Shown one piece after another: positions 1,097 to 22,829 of a stretch of 32,000 bases of DNA. The notes under the pieces were generated by a model. The model made no database searches. It had not been told where the DNA came from and worked only from the letters and a program-made list of their open reading frames with translations. The stretch's first letter is position 1; the number at the start of each line of letters is the position of its first letter. Origin of the DNA: Pyrinomonadaceae bacterium (GTDB lineage: Bacteria > Acidobacteriota > Blastocatellia > Pyrinomonadales > Pyrinomonadaceae); NCBI GenBank assembly GCA_019694395.1, contig JAIBCC010000002.1, positions 30,330 to 62,329 of the forward strand. The letters run 5' to 3'. The position numbers and the translations under genes are program-made.

Positions 1097-2755
1097 ATGA
1101 AAAGTTTTCGTTTAATTTTTACGCTAGCCCTGATTTTTTGTTTCAAAGTTTATTTAACCACGGAGACAATTGCCCAAACCGGTCCGATTACCCGTGCCGA
1201 AACTCTTCGCGGTTCGATCACTCCCGAACGTGAATGGTGGGATTTACAGCATTATGATTTATCAGTTCAATTTTTCCCGGAAAACCGCACCATTAAAGGC
1301 TCAAACGTGATTTCTTTTAAAACTGTTAAAGCCGGAAATAAAATGCAGATTGATCTGCAAACTCCCCTTAATATGACTAAAATCACTCACGGTTCAGCGG
1401 AATTAAAATTTGAACGCGAAGGCAATGTTTATTGGGTTTATCTGGACAAAGAATTGCCGAAAGGAGTTGATGACAGCATAACTGTTTATTGGGAAGGCAG
1501 ACCGCAAGTTAGTCAAAACCCACCCTGGAGCGGCGGAATTACTTGGGGACGTGATGATTTAGGCGAACATTTTATCACCACAACTTGCCAAGGAATCGGC
1601 GCGAGTATTTGGTGGGCAAATAAAGACCACGGAGCAGATGAACCCGACAAAGGAATGAATATCAACATTACCGTTCCTGAAAATCTGGTTGCAGTTTCCA
1701 ATGGTCGTTTGAAAAAAGTTGACGCAAATATTGCCGATAAAACAAAGACCTATCATTGGCAAGTGACAAATCCAATCAACAATTACGGCGTTAATGCAAA
1801 CATCGGAAATTACGTCCATTGGGAAGAAAAATTCAAAGGTTTAGGCGGCGATTTGGATTTGCAATACTGGACTCTGCCTCATCAAAAAGAAGCAGCGATG
1901 AAACAATTCAAAGAAGTTCCGCGAATGCTCGAAGCCTTTGAGCATTGGTTCGGCAAATATCCCTGGTATGAAGACGGTTACAAACTAGTTACCGTTTCCT
2001 ATGCCGGAATGGAACATCAAAGTTCAGTGACTTACGGAAACTGGTTTCGCAACGGGTATCGCGGGCGCGATGTGAGTTTTACGGGAATCGGCTACAAATT
2101 CGATTTCATCATAGTTCACGAATCCGGTCACGAATGGTTCGGCAACAATATTTCAATGAAAGATGCCGCCGATATGTGGATTCACGAAGGCTTTACAAAT
2201 TATTCGGAAAATCTTTTTGTTGAATACTGGTTCGGCAAAAAAGATGGCGAAGATTACGTCATCGGCAGCCGCAAAAATATCCGCAATGATTCAACCATCA
2301 TCGGCACCTACAACTCCAACCGTGAAGGTTCGGGCGATATGTATTACAAAAGCGGGAATATGCTCCACACCATTCGAAGCATCATCAACAACGATGAAAA
2401 ATGGCGTGCAATTTTGCAGGGCTTAAACAAAGAATTCTGGCATCAAACCGTGACGACTCAACAAGTTGAGAATTATATTTCCCAACAAGCCGGAATTGAT
2501 CTAAGCAAAGTCTTTGACCAATATCTACGCACAACCAAAATTCCTTTGCTTCAATACAAAATTGACGGCGATAAATTAACAGTAAAATATGACAGAGTTG
2601 TTCCAGGTTTTGCGATGCCGATTCGGGCAACTCTTAATGGCAAAGAGGTTATCATCAAACCAACCGAAACCGTTCAAACCATAATGTATCCCGAAGAACT
2701 TAAAACATTTGTAGTAAATCGGAATTTTTATATCGAAACCGAATTGATGAAGTAA
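1097..2755 (+). CDS. secreted M1-family zinc metallopeptidase
   Basis: N-terminal signal peptide (MKSFRLIFTLALIFCFKVYLTTETIAQ). HEXXH-X18-E zinc site (VHESGHEWFGNNISMKDAADMWIHEGFTNY). GxMEN-like exopeptidase motif variant (YAGMEHQ). Confidence 0.85.
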   Translation: MKSFRLIFTLALIFCFKVYLTTETIAQTGPITRAETLRGSITPEREWWDLQHYDLSVQFFPENRTIKGSNVISFKTVKAGNKMQIDLQTPLNMTKITHGSAELKFEREGNVYWVYLDKELPKGVDDSITVYWEGRPQVSQNPPWSGGITWGRDDLGEHFITTTCQGIGASIWWANKDHGADEPDKGMNINITVPENLVAVSNGRLKKVDANIADKTKTYHWQVTNPINNYGVNANIGNYVHWEEKFKGLGGDLDLQYWTLPHQKEAAMKQFKEVPRMLEAFEHWFGKYPWYEDGYKLVTVSYAGMEHQSSVTYGNWFRNGYRGRDVSFTGIGYKFDFIIVHESGHEWFGNNISMKDAADMWIHEGFTNYSENLFVEYWFGKKDGEDYVIGSRKNIRNDSTIIGTYNSNREGSGDMYYKSGNMLHTIRSIINNDEKWRAILQGLNKEFWHQTVTTQQVENYISQQAGIDLSKVFDQYLRTTKIPLLQYKIDGDKLTVKYDRVVPGFAMPIRATLNGKEVIIKPTETVQTIMYPEELKTFVVNRNFYIETELMK

Positions 2756-2892
2756 TTGTAAGGTCAAATACTATTTGACTTGTAAATATCGAAAATATAA
2801 ACTTTAAATTTCAAACGTGGTGAGTTATTGCGACTTGCGACCACGCTAAATAAACCGCTAAACAGCTATGAGTTTTAGTTAAAGTTTGATGG

Positions 2893-2962: not shown

Positions 2963-3496
2963 ATGATTTTGTTCATAAACGGTTCATTTGGAGTTGGCAA
3001 AACCACAGTTGGGCGAATTTTGAAAAAACAGATTAAAGGAAGTGTTTTATATAATCCCGAATGGTTTGGTTCTGTCCTAATGCGACTTCCAATTAATTTT
3101 CGTGGAAGTGGAACGGATGATTTTCAAGATTTAGATTTATGGCGAAAATCAGTCGTTTACGGCATTAAACTGTTTCGCTTTTTTGCCCGTGAAACTGTTA
3201 TCGTTCCGATGGCTTTTAGCCGCAAAGATTATTTTGAAGAAATACTGAGGGAAATTAGTCAGTTTGATAATAAAATTAGAATTTTTTGTTTAAAAGCCGG
3301 TTTTGAAATAATTGTGAAACGGCTTCAACATCGCGGCGAAAAAATCGAAGAAAGCGAAAATAACTGGACAATTCGTAAAGCCCGTATTTGCCTAAAGGCA
3401 CATAAAAATGATTTTTTCGGTGAAAGTATTGATACAACTGGGATAAATGCAGGCGAAGTGGCGGCTGAAATTCTAAAAAGAATGAGCAAAACCTAA
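2963..3496 (+). CDS. P-loop NTPase / small-molecule kinase-like protein (AAA_33 / TmrB-like)
   Basis: Walker A motif at the N-terminus (MILFINGSFGVGKTTVG). About 177 aa, the size typical of the family. Only 15 nt upstream of metH, so probably co-transcribed with it. Confidence 0.55.
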   Translation: MILFINGSFGVGKTTVGRILKKQIKGSVLYNPEWFGSVLMRLPINFRGSGTDDFQDLDLWRKSVVYGIKLFRFFARETVIVPMAFSRKDYFEEILREISQFDNKIRIFCLKAGFEIIVKRLQHRGEKIEESENNWTIRKARICLKAHKNDFFGESIDTTGINAGEVAAEILKRMSKT

Positions 3497-3511: not shown

Positions 3512-6500
3512 ATGAGCAATAATTTTTTAGATTTATTAAAAGAAAGAGTCATCGTTTTTGACGGTGCGATGGGAAGCAATCTGCAATCCCAGAATTTGAC
3601 GATTGATGATTGGGGCGGTCCGAATTTTGAAAATTGTTCGGAAAATCTGCTTTACACAAAGCCCGAAGCGATTGAAAAAGTCCACACGGGATTTTTGGAA
3701 ATCGGCTGCGATGTGATCGAAACCAACTCTTTCGGCGGCGGCGAAGTCGTTTTGCAGGAATTTGGGATTGCGGATAAAGCGTATGATGTCAATAAATTAG
3801 CCGCGAGTTTTGCCAAAAATCTGGCGAATCAATATTCGACCAAAGCAAAACCGCGTTTCGTTGCAGGCTCAATCGGACCGGGGACGAAATTGCCGACGCT
3901 CGGACATATCACCTACGAAGATTTGAAAAAATCTTACGTTCAGCAAGTTCACGGACTTTATGACGGCGGCGTTGATATGTTCGTCGTCGAAACTTGTCAG
4001 GACATTTTGCAGACCAAAGCCGCACTCGCCGCGATTTTTGATTTTTTCAAAGAAAAACGAGTCAAAATTCCCGTTATTGCTCAGGTGACGATTGAAACTT
4101 TCGGCACGATGCTCAACGGAACGGAAATTTCCGCCGCGTTGACGGCACTCGAACCGTTCCCGATTGACGTAATCGGGATGAACTGCGGAACGGGTCCCGA
4201 TCAAATGACAGAAAACGTCAAATATTTGTGCGAAAACGCTCCGTTCTACGTTTCAGTTTTGCCGAATGCGGGTTTGCCTGAAGTGAAAGACGGACAGCAA
4301 TATTACACCGAATCGCCCGAAGATTTCGCTAAAAAGGTCGAGCATTTCGCCAAAGATTTCGGGGCAAATATCGTCGGCGGCTGCTGCGGAACTTCGTTTG
4401 AACATTTGAAAGCCGCGATTGATCGTGTCAGCCAGCTTTCGCCAAAGGAACGTAACGCCAAATTAGTTCCCTCAGCGGCTTCGATCTATTTCCAACAGCC
4501 TTACACGCAGGACAATTCGTTTTTGATCGTCGGCGAAAGAGTTAATGCTTCAGGCTCGAAAAAAATGCGTGATTTGCTCGAAGCCGAAAATTGGGACGGG
4601 CTGATCGCTTTGGCGAAAGAGCAGGAACGCGAAGGGGCGCACGTTCTGGATGTCAACGTGGATTTCGTCGGACGCGACGGCGTGGCTGATATGAACGAGT
4701 TGGTTTCAAAATTGGTCACCAACGTCAAAATTCCGCTGATGCTCGATTCAACCGAATGGGAAAAGATGGAAGCCGGATTAAAACTCGCGGGCGGAAAATG
4801 TCTTTTGAATTCAACCAATTACGAAGACGGACCGGAAAGATTTTACAAAGTTCTTGAGCTTGCCAAAGAATACGGGGCAGGCATCGTTATCGGTTTGATC
4901 GATGAAGAAGGAATGGCACGGACGGCGGAAAACAAACTAAAAATTGCCAGACGCGCCTACAAAGACGCAACCGCTTTCGGCATTCAGGCACACGATATTT
5001 TCTTTGATCCGCTTGCTTTGCCGATTTCGACCGGAATCGAAGAAGATCGTGCAAACGCGGCTGAAACCGTTGCTTCAATCAAACAAATTCACGAAGAAAT
5101 GCCCGAAGCAAATATAATCTTGGGCGTTTCTAATATTTCTTTCGGACTGAATCCTGCGGCTCGCGTCGTTTTGAACTCAATTTTCCTACACGAATGCGTC
5201 GAAGTTGGTATGAACTCGGCAATCGTTAATGCTTCTAAAATTCTGCCATTGAATCGGTTTAACGAACACGAAATCGAAGTCGCACTTGATTTGATCTACG
5301 ACCGACGCAAATTTGAAGGTGACATTTGCACATACGATCCGCTCGGGGAATTCACGACTTTGTTTGAAGGAAAAACCGCAAAGTCAATGAAGGCAGATAT
5401 TTCCAATCTTCCCATCGAAGAAAAATTGCAAAGACACATCATTGACGGCGAAAAAATTGGTCTTGAAGATACTCTCAAAGCCGCACTCGAAAAATATGAA
5501 CCGCTCGACATTATCAACACCCATCTTCTGGGCGGTATGAAGGTTGTCGGTGACCTTTTCGGTTCGGGACAGATGCAACTTCCCTTCGTTTTGCAATCTG
5601 CTGAGGCGATGAAAACTGCCGTTAAATTCCTCGAACCATTTATGGAAAAGGTTGAAGGCTCAGGCAAAGGTAAGATGATTTTGGCGACGGTCAAAGGCGA
5701 CGTTCACGACATCGGCAAAAATCTGGTTGATATTATTTTGACCAATAACGGCTATGACGTTGTAAATTTGGGAATTAAACAAGGCATTGACGAAATTCTG
5801 CACGCTTATCAGCAACACAAAGGCGATGCGATCGGGATGTCCGGTTTGCTCGTCAAATCAACTCTGATTATGCGTGATAATCTCGAAATTATGAACGAAC
5901 GCGGCATCAATGTTCCGGTAATTTTGGGTGGTGCGGCGTTGAATCGTAAATATGTTGATAACGATTTAGTGCCAATCTACAACGGCAAATTGTTTTATGC
6001 CCGTGATGCTTTTGATGGACTTCACGCGATGGATTCTTTAACTCAGAAGGGTTCAACCACAGAGAACACAGAGTTCACAGAGAAGGCGAAAGCGGTTTCT
6101 GCTGGTTCAGATGAAGTTATCCAAACTGTTGATGATGTTGAGGATTTGGTCGGTGAAGATGCAAAACTCGGGATGAAAGCCGCAACGGTGCATCAGAAAA
6201 AATCGGCTCTTGATTCAACTCATACTACTAAATCCGACGTTAAACCTGCCGAAATTATTCCAGCCGCACCGTTCTACGGCTCAAAAGTTGTGGAAATCAC
6301 CGATTTGAATAAAGTCTTTGAATTCATCAACGAAACTGCCCTTTTCAAAGGTCAATGGCAATACAAACAGGGCAAAAAATCGAAGGAAGAATACGCAGAG
6401 ATTTTGGAAAAAGAGGTTTATCCTAAATTCAAAGCGATCAAAGCACAGGCGATTCGTGAAAAACTGCTCGAAGCAAAATTAGTTTACGGCTACTTCCCTT

Positions 6501-7054
6501 GCCATTCGGAAGGAAACGATTTGATTATTTTGCAGGACGATGAAAAAACCGAAAGATTGCGTTTCACTTTCCCTCGTCAACCTCTTGAACAACGCGGCAG
6601 TAAAAACTTATGTTTAGCCGATTATTTCTCGTCGGATAAAACTGATGTCGTTGCGTTTCAATTAGTTACGATGGGAAGAAAGGCTTCGGAACACGCCGCT
6701 CAGCTTTTCAAATCTGATAATTACACCGATTATCTTTTGTTCCACGGACTTTCGGTTGAATCGGCGGAAGCACTCGCCGAAATGTGGCACAAACGCGTCC
6801 GCGAAGAACTCGGCTTTGCCCAAAATGATGCCAAAGATTTAGCCAAACTTTTCCATCAAGGCTATCAAGGTTCGCGTTACAGCTTCGGTTATCCGGCGTG
6901 TCCGAATCTCGAAGATCAGACAAAACTTTTTGAACTGCTTCAACCCGAAAGAATTGATGTCGAATTATCGGAAGAATTTCAGCTTCATCCCGAACAATCA
7001 ACTTCAGCGATAATCGTCCATCATCCGGAGGCGAAATATTTTAACGTGGAGTAG
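3512..7054 (+). CDS. metH: cobalamin-dependent methionine synthase
   Basis: All four modules are recognisable. Hcy-binding barrel (GGCCGT). Pterin-binding barrel. B12-binding DxHxxG...SxL...GG signature (GDVHDIGKN, MSGLL, ILGGAAL). C-terminal AdoMet reactivation domain (RYSFGYPACPNLEDQ). Confidence 0.95.
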   Translation: MSNNFLDLLKERVIVFDGAMGSNLQSQNLTIDDWGGPNFENCSENLLYTKPEAIEKVHTGFLEIGCDVIETNSFGGGEVVLQEFGIADKAYDVNKLAASFAKNLANQYSTKAKPRFVAGSIGPGTKLPTLGHITYEDLKKSYVQQVHGLYDGGVDMFVVETCQDILQTKAALAAIFDFFKEKRVKIPVIAQVTIETFGTMLNGTEISAALTALEPFPIDVIGMNCGTGPDQMTENVKYLCENAPFYVSVLPNAGLPEVKDGQQYYTESPEDFAKKVEHFAKDFGANIVGGCCGTSFEHLKAAIDRVSQLSPKERNAKLVPSAASIYFQQPYTQDNSFLIVGERVNASGSKKMRDLLEAENWDGLIALAKEQEREGAHVLDVNVDFVGRDGVADMNELVSKLVTNVKIPLMLDSTEWEKMEAGLKLAGGKCLLNSTNYEDGPERFYKVLELAKEYGAGIVIGLIDEEGMARTAENKLKIARRAYKDATAFGIQAHDIFFDPLALPISTGIEEDRANAAETVASIKQIHEEMPEANIILGVSNISFGLNPAARVVLNSIFLHECVEVGMNSAIVNASKILPLNRFNEHEIEVALDLIYDRRKFEGDICTYDPLGEFTTLFEGKTAKSMKADISNLPIEEKLQRHIIDGEKIGLEDTLKAALEKYEPLDIINTHLLGGMKVVGDLFGSGQMQLPFVLQSAEAMKTAVKFLEPFMEKVEGSGKGKMILATVKGDVHDIGKNLVDIILTNNGYDVVNLGIKQGIDEILHAYQQHKGDAIGMSGLLVKSTLIMRDNLEIMNERGINVPVILGGAALNRKYVDNDLVPIYNGKLFYARDAFDGLHAMDSLTQKGSTTENTEFTEKAKAVSAGSDEVIQTVDDVEDLVGEDAKLGMKAATVHQKKSALDSTHTTKSDVKPAEIIPAAPFYGSKVVEITDLNKVFEFINETALFKGQWQYKQGKKSKEEYAEILEKEVYPKFKAIKAQAIREKLLEAKLVYGYFPCHSEGNDLIILQDDEKTERLRFTFPRQPLEQRGSKNLCLADYFSSDKTDVVAFQLVTMGRKASEHAAQLFKSDNYTDYLLFHGLSVESAEALAEMWHKRVREELGFAQNDAKDLAKLFHQGYQGSRYSFGYPACPNLEDQTKLFELLQPERIDVELSEEFQLHPEQSTSAIIVHHPEAKYFNVE

Positions 7055-16796: not shown

Positions 16797-18083
16797 TTGT
16801 GTCTAATTATGATTTCCTTATCATTCTTTAATATCTTTGTTTCTAAAATTCGTTTCACGGGAACACAAAATGAAAGCCTTGAACGAATTGAATTCTTAAC
16901 CGCCATTGATAATTTTAGATTATCAAGTCTTCCCTATTTTCTTGGAGTTTCGGTTTTTACCGCTCTTAACCATAATGCCGGAAATCTAAAACTGGAATTA
17001 TTCTGGCTATTCACTTCATTCATTGTAAGGTCACTTTTTCAATTCTTTTACCGTCGGATTCAACAATCCCTGTTGAATGAGAATTCTGATTTTGCTCTAT
17101 TAAAATTGATCATTCAGACATCAGCAATTTTATATGGAATTTTTTGGGGCTCAACAATTTTCTTTTTTCATCCTGCAATTGAACAATTTAATTTCAACTC
17201 CTTCTTAATTTTAGTGGTTTGCTTAATTGCAGTAATTTCAAACTACGGCTTAATTTGTCTTCCCCGCTCCGATCTATTTTTGTTGTTTGCTATCGCGGTG
17301 GGAATTACCTCAATATCCCCGGCTTTGACTTATGACCTTAATAACTCATATTTGGCTGCTCTTGGATTTACAATTTTTATTTCTGTTCAAACCTTCTATT
17401 CCATCAGGCTAAAAGGCAAATTCGACGAACAAATTTTGTTAAAAATGCAAAACCAGGAATTGGTCAACTCATTGGAAGAAAATCGAGCCAAAATGAACCA
17501 AAATATTAAAGTTCTGGAGGATTTATCACTTCACGATGATTTGACTCAACTTCCAAACCGCCGTTTTTTAATGAACAAATTTTTAAACTCCAGGCTGGAA
17601 TCCGAAGATGAAACCGAATTTAGTTTAATGATTTTGGATTTGGACAATTTCAAAACCATAAATGACAGATTCGGACATCTGGTCGGGGACAAAGTTTTGA
17701 TCAAAGTTGCAGCTATTTTGAAGAATTCCATTCGCGGAACAGATTGTGCGGCACGGGTTGGCGGCGAAGAATTTGTAATTTTTTTGCCAAATTCCAAACA
17801 AAATGAAGCTCTGTTGGTGGCGGAAAGAATTCGTCAAACCATTCAAAATCAAATATTTTTAGATACCAAAAACCAGCCTTTTCAAATAACAACTTCAATT
17901 GGCTTAGCAGAATCAGTTATAAATTCCGATTTAACAAATGTTTTTCAAAAAGCAGATACAGCACTTTATGAAGCCAAACAGGAAGGTAAAAACAGGATCA
18001 AAATTGCAACTGAAACGGATTTTGATTTTTCACTGAATCAATCAATTGCATCCCTTTCGGAAATTAACAAATTTCTAAATTAA
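16797..18083 (+). CDS. membrane-anchored diguanylate cyclase (multi-TM N-terminal domain, coiled coil, GGDEF domain)
   Basis: Active site GGEEF with an RxxD I-site five residues upstream (RGTDCAARVGGEEF). The guanine-specifying KTINDRFGHLVGD segment is canonical. The start is uncertain: TTG 16797 or ATG 16809. Confidence 0.85.
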   Translation: MCLIMISLSFFNIFVSKIRFTGTQNESLERIEFLTAIDNFRLSSLPYFLGVSVFTALNHNAGNLKLELFWLFTSFIVRSLFQFFYRRIQQSLLNENSDFALLKLIIQTSAILYGIFWGSTIFFFHPAIEQFNFNSFLILVVCLIAVISNYGLICLPRSDLFLLFAIAVGITSISPALTYDLNNSYLAALGFTIFISVQTFYSIRLKGKFDEQILLKMQNQELVNSLEENRAKMNQNIKVLEDLSLHDDLTQLPNRRFLMNKFLNSRLESEDETEFSLMILDLDNFKTINDRFGHLVGDKVLIKVAAILKNSIRGTDCAARVGGEEFVIFLPNSKQNEALLVAERIRQTIQNQIFLDTKNQPFQITTSIGLAESVINSDLTNVFQKADTALYEAKQEGKNRIKIATETDFDFSLNQSIASLSEINKFLN

Positions 18084-19337: not shown

Positions 19338-20210
19338 ATGGACGAAAACCGTAATCAACAAATAGATTTAAAATCGCACACTGCCTTAGTGCCGACTAAA
19401 GAGGAAATTTCAGTTCTTTCCTTAACTGAAAAAATCGGCTTTAAACTCACCCATCGAATGAATCAGGGAATTTGGAAAAAATTCTGGACATTTTGCCAAC
19501 GCCATATCGGTTCACTTTGGATAAAAATTTCGACTTACAATTTAATGAATGTTTTCGGAATCGAAGTTATCAACAAATCAAACTTTAATCGCCCCCTTTT
19601 GCTGGTAGCAAATCATCGCTCATTTTTCGATATGTATGTTGTTTCCTCAGTAATGTTCCGCCAAACGAGACATCCGATGACACTCTTCTTTCCGGTCCGT
19701 GCCAAATTTTTTTACGATAATTTGATTGGTTGGTTCGTCAATTTAGTAATGGGTTGGTGGTCAATGTATCCGCCTTTTTTTCGTGAAGCAAAGGAAGCCA
19801 AAAAACGCGAGTTTGATAAGTTTTCCCTGCGCCGTTTAACCCAAATTTGTTCAGTTGGTTATGGTCACGTGATCGGATTTCACCCCGAAGGAAAACGAAA
19901 TTTAAATGAAAGTCCATATGATTTTTTGCCCGCTCAACCGGGAGTCGGCGCAGTCATTATGAAAGCCAAACCGCAAGTAATCCCAGTATTCATTGCCGGA
20001 TTAGGAAATGATCTGCCAAAACAGATTTTGGGAAATTGGACAGGTGGTGAAAAAGTTCGGATTTGGTTCGGTGAACCGGTGGAGCTTTCTGCCTTTTATG
20101 AAAAAGGTGATCGGTTACGCACACATAAAGAAATTGCTGACTTCCTGATGACTAAAATTGGTGAATTGGGTGAAAAGGACAAGGAATTTATGGCAAAAAA
20201 CATTAAATGA
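19338..20210 (+). CDS. lysophospholipid (1-acyl-glycerol-3-phosphate-type) acyltransferase, PlsC family
   Basis: HX4D motif (ANHRSFFD) and the FHPEGKR motif III. Confidence 0.75.
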   Translation: MDENRNQQIDLKSHTALVPTKEEISVLSLTEKIGFKLTHRMNQGIWKKFWTFCQRHIGSLWIKISTYNLMNVFGIEVINKSNFNRPLLLVANHRSFFDMYVVSSVMFRQTRHPMTLFFPVRAKFFYDNLIGWFVNLVMGWWSMYPPFFREAKEAKKREFDKFSLRRLTQICSVGYGHVIGFHPEGKRNLNESPYDFLPAQPGVGAVIMKAKPQVIPVFIAGLGNDLPKQILGNWTGGEKVRIWFGEPVELSAFYEKGDRLRTHKEIADFLMTKIGELGEKDKEFMAKNIK

Positions 20211-20395
20211 ACCTCTAAAAACCCATTCTTTTGCTTTCCAATTTCAAGGAAGTCTTGTTAATAAATAGTTAATTCTACTTATTTCAAAAGTAAAATCTGT
20301 AGTCATAAATTTTAAATACCTTGAATTGTATAGAAATTCTGCCATAATACGCTTAGAACTCCGCAATAATTTTTTGTTGTGTCGTTCCTAACATT

Positions 20396-22051
20396 ATGAA
20401 ACTTTTGAAAATTAACTTCTTTTTCGTTTTCCTTTTTATTTCTGTAATTAACATTTTTGGTCAAACACCTCGGGTTCGCACTTTTGATGCTCAACATTAC
20501 ATAATTCGTTCAAGTTTTGACCGCAAAAACAAAATTTTCTATGGTGATGTAACCGTTCAGGTCAAACCTTTGACCGATAATTTCAACAAATTGGTTTTAG
20601 ATTCGGTTGGAATGAAATTTCAATCAGTGACTCTCGAACCAACCGGAACAACTCTTGATTACAAACAAACTGCTGATAAAGTTACCGTTATATTGGATAA
20701 ATCTTTTTCACAAAATGATTTAGTTTCGGTGAGATTCAAATATTCCTCGCAAACTCCTAAAAAAGGCGTTTATTTTGTTGATGAAGAAAAGGCAGATGGA
20801 AAAGTTTTACATTCGTCTCAGGTTTGGACGCAAGGCGAAGCAGAAGAAGCCCGTTATTGGTTTCCCAGCTATGATTTCCCGGATGATAAGGCGACAACCG
20901 AACAATATATAACAATTCCAAATGATGAAGTTGCAATTGCTAATGGCGAACTTTTGGAAAAAACCGAAAACTCTGATGGAACAACCACTTTCCATTACAA
21001 AATGCCCGTTGTTCATTCCGTTTATTTAACTTCTTTTGTAGTTGGAAAATACGTCAAAGTTGAAGGAAAATACAAAAATATTCCACTCGGCTATTATGTT
21101 TATCCGGGTAAGGAAAATATAGTTGAAAAAGCCTATGGCAAAACCCCCGATATGATGCGGGTTTACGAAGAATTAACCGGAATTGATTTTCCATACAATA
21201 AATATGACCAAACGATTGTTGCCCGTTTTAATTTCGGCGGAATGGAAAACATTACGGCAACCACAATGGCTGATACCGAAATTATGTTTGGATTGTTCAG
21301 CCCGGATATTGCGGTGGATCTTGTGTCACACGAACTTGCACATTCCTGGTTCGGTGATCTGGTCACAACCAAGGATTGGTCTAACCTTTGGTTGAATGAA
21401 GGATTTGCAACTTTTATGGAAGCTGCCTATCGTGAAAAATCTAATGGGCGAGCCGATTACTTACGAAAAGTCCGCGAAGATGCAGCACAATATATGGCGG
21501 AGGATTCTTATTCCAATTCAAGACATCCCCTCATGCGTCCGAATCCACCCACCGATGACTCGCTTTTTGATACTACGACCTATCAAAAAGGCGGTGCAGT
21601 TATACATACACTGAGAGAAGAAGTTGGAACTGAAAACTTTTGGAAAGCAATTAACATTTACCTGAATCGTCACAAATTTGACAATGTAGTCACGGAAGAT
21701 TTGAAAAGGGCAATGCAAGAAGTTTCTGGTAAAGACCTTTCCTGGTTTTTCGATCAATGGGTTTATAAAGCTGGATTTCCTAAATTAATAATCACTCAGG
21801 TTTACAATCAAACTAAAAAACGACTGACTCTCAATATTACCCAGTCCCAAAAGATAGATTCAATTACTCCGTCAGCTTTTATTTTGCCAATGGAGTTGGA
21901 AATTCAGACCGCAAAAGGAACTAAAACTGAAAAAATTCAAATTAATAAACGTAGTCAAACTATCAATTTACAGGTTGATTCTAAACCAGTTAAAGTAATT
22001 TTCGATAAGGATGAAAAGATACCGTTAAAGAATTTGAGAGTTATTAAATAA
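20396..22051 (+). CDS. secreted M1-family aminopeptidase
   Basis: Signal peptide MKLLKINFFFVFLFISVINIFGQ. GGMEN exopeptidase motif. HELAHSWFGD...WLNEGFATF zinc site. Confidence 0.85.
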   Translation: MKLLKINFFFVFLFISVINIFGQTPRVRTFDAQHYIIRSSFDRKNKIFYGDVTVQVKPLTDNFNKLVLDSVGMKFQSVTLEPTGTTLDYKQTADKVTVILDKSFSQNDLVSVRFKYSSQTPKKGVYFVDEEKADGKVLHSSQVWTQGEAEEARYWFPSYDFPDDKATTEQYITIPNDEVAIANGELLEKTENSDGTTTFHYKMPVVHSVYLTSFVVGKYVKVEGKYKNIPLGYYVYPGKENIVEKAYGKTPDMMRVYEELTGIDFPYNKYDQTIVARFNFGGMENITATTMADTEIMFGLFSPDIAVDLVSHELAHSWFGDLVTTKDWSNLWLNEGFATFMEAAYREKSNGRADYLRKVREDAAQYMAEDSYSNSRHPLMRPNPPTDDSLFDTTTYQKGGAVIHTLREEVGTENFWKAINIYLNRHKFDNVVTEDLKRAMQEVSGKDLSWFFDQWVYKAGFPKLIITQVYNQTKKRLTLNITQSQKIDSITPSAFILPMELEIQTAKGTKTEKIQINKRSQTINLQVDSKPVKVIFDKDEKIPLKNLRVIK

Positions 22052-22070
22052 GAGTTTTAACCTAAACAAC

Positions 22071-22105
22071 AAAAGTTCCGCTACACATTGCAGCGGAACT
22101 TTTTC
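22071..22105. terminator. bidirectional intrinsic terminator
   Basis: A 9-bp perfect stem pairs agttccgct (22074-22082) with agcggaact (22092-22100). An A-run lies 5' and a T-run 3', so a U-tract follows the hairpin on either strand. It sits 20 nt after the M1 peptidase stop. Confidence 0.7.
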
Positions 22106-22341
22106 TTTGAGACGACAAGAAACGTTGAAAAATACAAGGGCGCAAAGCAACACGCGGGTCGCGCCAAAAACGGCAGAACTTTATGTGTCCTTCTTCACCA
22201 TAGCCTACGAGGTTAGCTGTCGGGCTAGGAAAGAAGAAGTTTCCCGCGTTTCTCAACGCTACGCCCCTGTTTAGTAAAACTAAACTTTGGTTCCCCCGTG
22301 CTGCGCTTTAATAGGCACAACTTCGGCGACAACTTTTCAAC
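22106..22341 (-). ncRNA. candidate structured non-coding RNA of unknown class (possibly 6S-like rod, or a structured 3' UTR of the ctaB operon)
   Basis: About 50% G+C by hand count, against AT-rich intergenic DNA elsewhere. Long-range helices read on the minus strand: 22341-22332 with 22133-22124 (10 bp), and 22306-22294 with 22158-22142 (13 bp with bulges). Internal hairpins: 22285-22269; 22239-22233 with 22196-22190; 22227-22223 with 22205-22201. G-U pairs in the two long helices would be C-A mismatches on the plus strand. No credible ORF. Confidence 0.45.
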
Positions 22342-22347
22342 AAATGA

Positions 22348-22376
22348 ACTATAACAAATTTTTTTTGATAAATTAA
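22348..22376 (-). promoter_or_regulatory. candidate extended -10 promoter for the ncRNA (TTAATT, 17-nt spacer, TGtTATAGT)
   Basis: The minus strand reads ttaatt (22376-22371), then a 17-nt spacer ending in tgt, then tatagt (22353-22348). The predicted TSS near 22341 coincides with the first base of the outermost helix. Confidence 0.35.
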
Positions 22377-22382
22377 TGAAAA

Positions 22383-22829
22383 TTATCGGCTCGGATAAAG
22401 TTGGTAAAGTAGCAAATAAACAACAACTCCAGTCACTGAAACATATAGCCAAACGGGAAAAACCACCCTTGCAAATTTTTTGTGAATCTCAAATTGTCCT
22501 TTCAAAGCTTTGTAAAAAATAAAAGGAATGGCAGGTGCCACTACTGCGGCTAAAATGGTATGAGTGGCTAAAATCGTAAAATAAATCGGTCGTATGATGC
22601 CTTCGCCTGTAAATTTGGTAGGACCTAATCCGAAGTAATAAGTGCGGATTGAATGATGAATTAAATAACAGAAAAGAAATATAGATGATGACACAACCGC
22701 CGACACCATACAAACCCGATGTTTTTGGATTTCTTTATTTTTAATAAAGTAAAATCCAAATATTAAAAGAACTCCGCTAAAAGCGTTTAATGTAGCGTTA
22801 AGATGCGGAAAGATTTCTAAAAGTTGCAC
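22383..22829 (-). CDS. DUF420 membrane protein (CtaM-like cytochrome oxidase accessory factor)
   Basis: Four TM helices. HLNATLNAFSGVLL...HRVCM...LIHH pattern typical of DUF420. GTG start. Located directly downstream of the cox subunit III-like gene. Confidence 0.75.
   Translation of the reverse strand: MQLLEIFPHLNATLNAFSGVLLIFGFYFIKNKEIQKHRVCMVSAVVSSSIFLFCYLIHHSIRTYYFGLGPTKFTGEGIIRPIYFTILATHTILAAVVAPAIPFIFYKALKGQFEIHKKFARVVFPVWLYVSVTGVVVYLLLYQLYPSR

Follow-up and report, generated by a model that had tools for sequence, protein, structure and literature searches.

A c-di-AMP (ydaO-class) riboswitch aptamer in a conserved, gene-less RNA unit behind the ctaB-coxIII-DUF420 operon of Pyrinomonadaceae

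Genomic context of the region

The window analyzed here is a stretch of 32,000 nt from a Pyrinomonadaceae bacterium (Acidobacteriota; assembly GCA_019694395.1, contig JAIBCC010000002.1, positions 30,330 to 62,329). Within it, the genes of a DUF420 protein and an M1-family aminopeptidase converge on a gap of 331 bp, the minus strand of which carries a complete aptamer of the cyclic di-adenosine monophosphate (c-di-AMP) riboswitch class. The aptamer belongs to a unit of about 271 nt (22341 to 22071, minus strand) with a predicted promoter and a terminator, T2, and this unit recurs end to end in 52 species-level genomes. The two flanking genes are:

22383-22829, minus strand: DUF420 (CtaM family) gene (PF04238, E 3e-40), the last gene of the ctaB, coxIII, DUF420 operon
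20396-22051, plus strand: M1-family aminopeptidase gene (PF01433, PF17900), convergent, ending 20 nt beyond T2

The haem O synthase gene ctaB, a coxIII-like gene and DUF420 make up the complete operon, the other flank of which is occupied by resB and ccsA (cytochrome c biogenesis). A distant paralogue of the M1-family peptidase, 23% identical to the one adjacent to the RNA, is encoded at 1097-2755 (plus strand).

An earlier note on this DNA, made from its letters and hereafter called the sequence-only reading, had described the gap as GC-rich among AT-rich intergenic regions, as lacking a credible open reading frame (ORF) and as encoding a structured RNA on the minus strand. The composition is as described, with a G+C content of 0.47-0.48 over 22100-22324, against 0.25-0.29 in the intergenic positions 20150-20450 and approximately 0.35-0.40 in coding DNA. 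The ORFs of the gap (64, 42, 55 and 75 aa) gave no Pfam match where tested and, in relatives, the spacing between the aptamer and a downstream conserved module is evenly spread over the three reading frames (39/40/59); we therefore consider the region non-coding. A small ORF in the 3′ domain was ruled out, given that the frames differ among loci, the spacing is frame-even and the tested ORFs have no Pfam match. The minus strand folds with -104 kcal/mol (z = -5.5; none of 200 shuffles folds as well) and the plus strand with -80.6 kcal/mol (z = -2.4), which supports the choice of strand made in that reading.

Identification of a c-di-AMP riboswitch aptamer

Based on the Rfam scan, the 5′ part of the unit matches the c-di-AMP (ydaO/yuaA) riboswitch family RF00379 over its full length, scoring 67 bits where the gathering score is 38 (E 1e-13 for the whole window against Rfam and 2e-15 for the sub-region). 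The elements of this part are:

22187-22338, minus strand: complete c-di-AMP (ydaO-class) riboswitch aptamer, RF00379 model positions 1-134 of 134
22233-22239, minus strand: 5′ strand of the putative pseudoknot, aptamer loop CUUCUUC, complementary to the tail GAAGAAG
22190-22196, minus strand: 3′ strand of the putative pseudoknot, aptamer tail GAAGAAG, a candidate switching segment also complementary to the downstream GCUUC

All of the conserved RF00379 core motifs, i.e., ACGGGGGAACC, GGGGCG.AGC and CCCGnCAGCUAACCUCG, are present in the window alignment. For comparison, we used 80 loci around peptidase homologues, with one genome per species, all of them from Acidobacteriota of the Pyrinomonadaceae/Blastocatellia group. 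The aptamer signature motifs were found on the corresponding strand in 52 of the 80, with the flanking peptidase 49-64% identical; unless stated otherwise, the counts given below refer to these 52 loci. In these homologues, CGGGGGA.CC, GGGGCG and CCCG.CAGCTAAC..CG.AGG are invariant or nearly so, in agreement with the cmscan consensus.

The alignment of the 52 sequences (A2) also supports the fold. For the aptamer helices together with T2, 92% of the cells are paired, a fraction that drops to 43-56% when the partner strands are slid, and 304 cells show double changes versus 103 in shuffled controls, with none of 500 shuffles reaching the observed value. Most of the covariation is carried by T2 and two aptamer hairpins; the P2-like hairpin has double changes at all six of its pairs and the next hairpin at all four, while the long-range GCGGGG/CCUCGU helix is paired in 99.7% of the cells. 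The putative pseudoknot (CUUCUUC/GAAGAAG or AUCUUUC/AAAGAAG, depending on the clade) is paired in 94% of the cells; its changes are mostly one-sided and its register differs between the clades. In one homologue (L071:8637-8957), the variable P3 hairpin is longer by an insert of some 30 nt, and the remaining RNA is unaltered.

Taken together, the fold is a bona fide c-di-AMP riboswitch aptamer, and binding of c-di-AMP is predicted from its sequence. The genes typically found downstream of RF00379 aptamers, for K+ or osmolyte transport and cell wall functions, were not found here, and the sequence from the aptamer to T2 contains no ORF. This lack concerns the usage of the aptamer, so its membership in the family stands. 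The sequence-only reading had proposed a novel structured RNA, and had named a confident Rfam match as the outcome that would keep the RNA and remove the novelty. RF00379 is such a match, in a class which that reading had not tried; thus, the novel fold has to be abandoned whereas the RNA assignment is retained. What is left as novel is the architecture and the context, not the aptamer. The loosely 6S-like shape that had been suggested is likewise not supported, as no 6S match was obtained over 21950-22500 even at E <= 1, and the interior of the unit is the multi-helix fold of the aptamer. In the Rfam scan of the region, no transfer-messenger RNA or other family was matched besides RF00379, apart from two sub-threshold chance matches at T2 (ohsC and SR1), which merely detect the terminator.

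The internal hairpins that the sequence-only reading had listed are present in the window. For its second long helix and an "alternative" pairing, the strands are indeed complementary in the window and in the three relatives closest to it, but these pairings are not conserved outside that clade. The aptamer strands that they would use have native partners supported by covariation, for which reason we do not regard them as part of the core fold; at best, they are alternatives of the ligand-free state.

Promoter, leader and closing helix

Upstream of the aptamer, the conserved elements of the unit in the window are:

22348-22376, minus strand: predicted promoter of the RNA, with a weak -35-like TTAATT (22376-22371), a 17-nt spacer and the extended -10 TGtTATAGT (22356-22348)
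22332-22341, minus strand: invariant 5′ leader GUUGAAAAGU, 5′ strand of the closing helix H0 and probable 5′ end of the transcript, from its conservation in the 52 loci
22124-22133, minus strand: 3′ strand of H0, AUUUUUCAAC, with a nearly invariant TTCAAC, from the minimum-energy fold of the window and the consensus

The extended -10 (TG at 22356-22355, TATAGT at 22353-22348), which ends six bases 5′ of G22341, had been recognized in the sequence-only reading and is conserved in the relatives. Across the 52 loci, TTG (92% at the middle T) is followed by 17 variable nucleotides and TGnTAnnnT, 6-7 nt 5′ of GTTGAAAA. Based on this pattern, a conserved promoter of the sigma-70 type is predicted. 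The general promoter scan did not flag the site in the window because its -35 is weak there.

The leader has a length of 14 nt and is invariant among the homologues as GUUGAAAA (aligned form GUUGAAAAGUUGAUC), GTTGA being invariant and GTTGAAAA nearly so. Its partner is UUUUCAAC, both in the consensus from RNAalifold and in seven of seven single-sequence folds. This is the end pairing of 10 bp (22341-22332 with 22133-22124) that had been noticed in the window, where it is also part of the minimum-energy fold. H0 is paired in 91% of the cells, and UUCGAC in two loci keeps a pair as U-G. Since both strands are invariant, covariation cannot test this helix, and none is seen.

The 3′ domain

A conserved 3′ domain of about 110-115 nt lies between the aptamer and T2. 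In the 52-sequence alignment, the order of the unit is promoter, leader, aptamer, a short, variable hairpin, the conserved GCGCGAUUUUGUGUGUGCUUCGCGC, a tract rich in pyrimidines with UUUCAAC at its end, the module, an A-rich run and T2. The main elements in the window are:

22139-22165, minus strand: T1-like hairpin, GGCGCG, a 15-nt loop and UGCGCC, then the U-rich CUUGUAUUUUU (22138-22128); candidate for a terminator under ligand control or for a structural element
22105-22123, minus strand: conserved 3′ module, GUUUCUUGUCGUCUCAAAG in the window clade and with the consensus cAAGCAGACAUCCgGUCUUCUCAAAG elsewhere (52 loci)
22071-22104, minus strand: intrinsic terminator T2, with an A-tract, a stem of 14-15 bp and a U-tract; bidirectional (the scan finds 15 pairs, 22103-22071)

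At T1, the terminator scan flagged two overlapping terminator-like sites (22164-22152 and 22155-22140), and within the window clade the stem has a compensatory change (GGCGCG..UGCGCC versus GGUGCA..UGCAUC in L204). In the window and in the close relatives L201, L204 and L205, the loop of this hairpin (22158-22151) is CCCGCGUG, which is complementary to the aptamer strand CACGGGG (22300-22294) and also to ACGCGGG (22249-22243). These two complementarities correspond to the second long helix and the "alternative" pairing of the sequence-only reading. Other clades have UUUUGUGUGUGC instead; therefore, an anti-aptamer pairing may have been re-invented there in a different form.

The module is nearly invariant in the 52 loci, which were chosen via a protein and not via the module sequence. 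L201, L204 and L205, the closest relatives, carry exactly the window form, and their peptidases are 70-81% identical to that of the window. In an independent scan of metagenomes with the 18-mer GACATCCRGTCTTCTCAA, 120 contigs were retrieved, and in about 100 of them the aptamer is located 95-119 nt 5′ of the module; about 95 metagenome contigs have the whole unit. In the metagenomes, the module is confined to sites behind the aptamer, barring 14 isolated 18-mer matches. A free-standing module was ruled out, given that these 14 aptamer-less contigs have no flanking similarity and represent chance matches.

T2, the bidirectional terminator that the sequence-only reading had placed at the end of the unit, shows the strongest covariation of the alignment, with both sides changed at 10 of 13 pairs and 98% of the cells paired. 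A long, GC-rich perfect stem with a tail of 5-8 U is present in every homologue, regardless of the next gene. Because T2 carries both an A-tract and a U-tract and stands 20 nt beyond the peptidase stop, one hairpin ends both convergent units. A regulated T2 was ruled out, as the G/A variation at the GCGGGG strand of the aptamer is uncorrelated with the C/U variation in the 5′ arm of T2.

Conservation and genomic linkage

In all 52 loci, the aptamer lies directly 3′ of DUF420, the last gene of the operon, and DUF420, coxIII and ctaB are found upstream in the metagenome contigs wherever the sequence is long enough. The median distance from the DUF420 stop to the first base of the RNA is 54 nt (41 nt in the window), a gap that the promoter fills, and a terminator-like hairpin between DUF420 and the RNA was found in a single locus of the 52. 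Transcripts of the cta operon must therefore traverse the aptamer and would stop at T1 or T2. In view of the RNA's own predicted promoter and the lack of an intervening terminator, we predict that it is made both as an independent small RNA (sRNA) and as the 3′ untranslated region (UTR) of the operon. The fallback of the sequence-only reading, a structured 3′ UTR or 3′-derived sRNA of the ctaB/coxIII/DUF420 operon, thus proved essentially right.

Two forms of DUF420 precede the same RNA, one 32-39% and the other 50-67% identical to the protein of the window. The loci L001, L002, L006, L009, L012, L015, L017, L021, L026, L068, L072 and L080 are separated in this respect from the remaining ones. 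It follows that the RNA is better conserved than the protein it trails.

This strict linkage bears on the possibility that the riboswitch is purely a cis element of the 3′ UTR, placing the 3′ end of the cta mRNA at T1 or T2 and so determining how stable this mRNA is or how it is processed, with the internal promoter secondary and with haem-copper oxidase assembly coupled to c-di-AMP. Genes inserted between the operon and the peptidase, which encode a secreted FG-GAP protein of 530-810 aa (7 loci), an SRAP protein or small helix-turn-helix-like products, always fall beyond T2, the RNA remaining with DUF420. Moreover, the aptamer is missing where DUF420 is otherwise arranged: lineages with a co-directional gene after DUF420 have no c-di-AMP aptamer in the locus. 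This possibility also gains from the genetics of c-di-AMP and respiration described below. Nevertheless, the -35 and extended -10 at a fixed spacing in nearly all loci argue for independent transcription, and the tight linkage may just reflect the absence of a neutral insertion site in a promoter-filled gap of 54 nt. We know of no bacterial precedent for a riboswitch controlling a gene upstream of it, which also counts against a purely cis role. On balance, we consider such a role unlikely, although it is the strongest of the alternatives.

The gene beyond T2 is variable. Among 109 loci, 85 have their first long ORF beyond T2 on the opposite strand, and in 73 of 131 loci fewer than 300 nt separate T2 from the end of the convergent M1 peptidase gene; accordingly, there is no downstream ORF for the RNA to regulate. 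Co-directional neighbours include genes of a secreted protein with seven FG-GAP_2 repeats and a Cohesin or CarboxypepD_reg domain, located between T2 and the peptidase in seven genome loci and two metagenome loci. In the genome loci, these genes are on the strand of the RNA (L010:9861-12281, L023:6546-8984, L030:9654-11780, L032:4484-6760, L034:9615-11378, L050:9724-11328 and L056:9614-11998). Over the nine loci, they start roughly 60-430 nt after T2.

These nine loci would suit a conventional cis riboswitch in which read-through of T2 controls the FG-GAP gene or, in the window, an antisense transcript into the M1 peptidase gene. Riboswitch-controlled antisense RNAs are known, as for the adenosylcobalamin (AdoCbl) riboswitch and AspocR in Listeria. 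However, the stem and U tail of T2 described above are also kept at the FG-GAP loci, and no aptamer segment suited to be an antiterminator covaries with the T2 arms. Furthermore, the downstream neighbour is variable, and loci with the peptidase away from the cta operon are without the aptamer. We therefore regard control by read-through as very improbable.

The lack of a downstream ORF would also be expected of an evolutionary relic whose regulated gene was lost, or of a ligand sponge that buffers free c-di-AMP. RNAs of the RF00379 class bind two c-di-AMP molecules each, as seen in crystal structures, which would favor a sponge. A relic should decay, yet more than 50 species retain the aptamer, promoter, leader, module and terminator, compensatory changes included, and purifying selection is already seen. 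A sponge would leave the near-invariant 3′ module and the invariant 5′ leader unexplained. Of the explanations considered, these two together are the least probable.

Candidate switching helices

Several pairings could connect the aptamer with the 3′ domain. The aptamer tail GAAG with the downstream GCUUC is paired in 94% of the cells across the 52 loci, and the aptamer core GCGAAGC with GCUUCGC in 88.5%, versus 33-57% in slid registers. A small hairpin, Ha, is paired in 68%, with covariation not above the shuffled controls. A further hairpin, which encloses UUUCAAC, is predicted in most sequences and was rejected, its positions being non-homologous and its pairs numbering 8.7 versus 5.6 in shuffles. 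In an unbiased stack scan of a 139-sequence alignment, the signal was swamped by G-rich and U-rich pseudo-helices.

Proposed function of the unit

We favor, with a probability of approximately 0.6, the reading of the region as a c-di-AMP-responsive riboregulator, that is, a riboswitch-containing sRNA or a 3′-UTR element of the cta operon. In the proposed mechanism, bound c-di-AMP would lock the core of the aptamer (GGGGCGAAGC) and its pseudoknot tail (GAAGAAG) in the aptamer fold, leaving the downstream GCUUCGCGC free, so that the T1 hairpin could form beside its U-rich tract while the leader closes on UUUUCAAC. The result would be a compact RNA, possibly with early termination at T1. Without ligand, the GCUUCGCGC segment could pair with the aptamer core or tail, and the RNA would be completed to T2. 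This full-length RNA would carry or expose the near-invariant module (..GACAUCCGGUCUUCUCAAAG), the A-rich tract, the T2 hairpin and the U tail. With its A-rich tract, strong hairpin and U tail, the module is reminiscent of the effector part of a trans-acting sRNA; its target would lie in trans, or it would influence the stability of the cta mRNA 3′ end.

Several observations weigh against this reading. H0, T1, the tail:GCUUC and the core:GCUUCGC pairings show no covariation above the shuffled controls, T1 being paired in 79% of the cells across the 52 loci, and the U-tract 3′ of T1 is poor in most clades. The 3′ domain is thus conserved mainly as sequence, and a switching scheme that relies on these helices is one that we infer. 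In the window clade, the module is shortened and altered, with GUCGUCUC in place of GUCUUCUC, and the corresponding core:GCUUUGC pairing has a U-U mismatch; hence, the proposed pairings are not uniformly kept. Complementarity of the module to translation start regions is not enriched for the six neighbours ctaB, coxIII, DUF420, resB, ccsA and M1 peptidase (mean z -0.4 to +0.4), and a search for exact 11-mer complements of the module returned trivial opposite-strand self-matches only. In addition, the promoter and the 5′ end of the RNA are predictions from the sequence, and the relatives used are all metagenome-assembled genomes.

The genomic setting hints at a possible physiological link. DUF420 belongs to the CtaM family of oxidase assembly factors, which is needed for the function of aa3-type oxidase (PMC4958251). 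Staphylococcus aureus can dispense with c-di-AMP under anaerobiosis or when it carries mutations in ctaA, qoxB or hemB (dacA suppressors) (PMC5836111). Together with the neighbouring resB and ccsA, these data make a link between c-di-AMP and the assembly of the respiratory chain plausible. A more specific proposal is that the RNA is the first c-di-AMP-sensing stand-alone riboregulator, both a promoter-to-terminator sRNA and an operon 3′ UTR, in which the ligand would decide whether the 3′ effector module is made or exposed, wiring an osmotic and envelope messenger to respiratory-chain assembly or to a trans regulon in soil Acidobacteria. We offer this proposal tentatively, at somewhat less than even odds.

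Comparison with known riboregulators

The canonical RF00379 riboswitches include the leaders of Bacillus subtilis ydaO (kimA) and B. thuringiensis kdpFABC (PMC6488665). The RNA of the window shares the aptamer with the ydaO/yuaA class, namely the full-length match, the core motifs, the covarying helices and a putative loop-tail pseudoknot. The canonical members are located in the 5′ UTR of transporter, osmoprotection and cell-wall genes and end with one terminator or by sequestering the Shine-Dalgarno sequence. In contrast, the RNA of the window stands behind an operon with no downstream ORF, and has a 14-nt leader, a 3′ domain of about 110 nt and a second, constitutive terminator.

A likeness in architecture is seen to the AdoCbl-riboswitch sRNAs EutX and Rli55 of Enterococcus and Listeria, which are shortened by ligand-stabilized termination and otherwise sequester EutV (PMC5821096). 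In common with them, the RNA described here has its own predicted promoter, an aptamer, a candidate early terminator, a conserved 3′ extension and a final terminator, and its genomic position does not depend on an ORF downstream (PMC5821096). It differs in the class of its ligand, in that its 3′ extension has no ANTAR-type dual hairpin and in being physically the 3′ UTR of an operon. The ligand-dependent short and long isoforms of EutX/Rli55 have a counterpart here as a prediction, and these sRNAs may serve by analogy as a precedent for the switch logic. SreA and SreB of Listeria and a dual sRNA/S-adenosylmethionine (SAM)-I riboswitch of Desulfovibrio (bioRxiv 10.1101/803072) are further cases in which a riboswitch transcript is itself the regulator. 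Those RNAs remain leaders, with the trans activity as a second job, whereas the RNA of the window has no cis gene.

With its predicted promoter, its own terminator and no ORF that it leads, the unit has the layout of a riboswitch-regulated stand-alone sRNA. It also has that of a Type I 3′-UTR-derived sRNA, since it adjoins a coding sequence, shares the operon terminator and contains a predicted internal promoter. Type I sRNAs of enterobacteria, such as DapZ and MicL, have their own promoter near the end of a coding sequence and share their terminator with the mRNA. The likeness to them covers the promoter within or just after the upstream coding sequence, the shared operon terminator, and the A-rich stretch with a strong hairpin and U tail. 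To our knowledge, no Type I 3′-UTR-derived sRNA carries a ligand-binding aptamer, in which the RNA of the window differs from them.

Our literature search on stand-alone or orphan c-di-AMP riboswitch sRNAs, and on ydaO in Acidobacteria, found nothing relevant, and a gene-less architecture at the tail of an operon with an effector-like 3′ domain appears to be undescribed. A riboswitch is almost invariably interpreted as the leader of the gene that follows it, and automated annotation would list this RNA as an ordinary c-di-AMP switch. More than 100 homologues nonetheless keep the complete aptamer, the predicted private promoter, the leader, the module and the terminator, though mostly nothing co-directional follows. 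Should it prove to have a target in trans or to act on the mRNA upstream, the RNA would extend the short list of ligand-controlled sRNAs, such as EutX/Rli55, to a nucleotide second messenger. It would also be a rare riboswitch at the 3′ end of a bacterial operon and would provide a first handle on c-di-AMP signalling in Acidobacteria. Its link to haem-copper oxidase assembly genes echoes the genetics of c-di-AMP and aerobic respiration in S. aureus.

Other features of the window

A gene of a GGDEF diguanylate cyclase is located at 16797-18083 (plus strand), 4 kb from the c-di-AMP RNA. A second riboswitch match, to SAM-II (SAM_alpha, RF00521), was found at 2807-2882 (plus strand) with a marginal score (40 bits; gathering score 36). 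It precedes an unannotated ORF of 177 aa (2963-3496), directly followed by the gene of MetH, a B12-dependent methionine synthase of 1180 aa (3512-7054), a context that is sensible for a SAM riboswitch.

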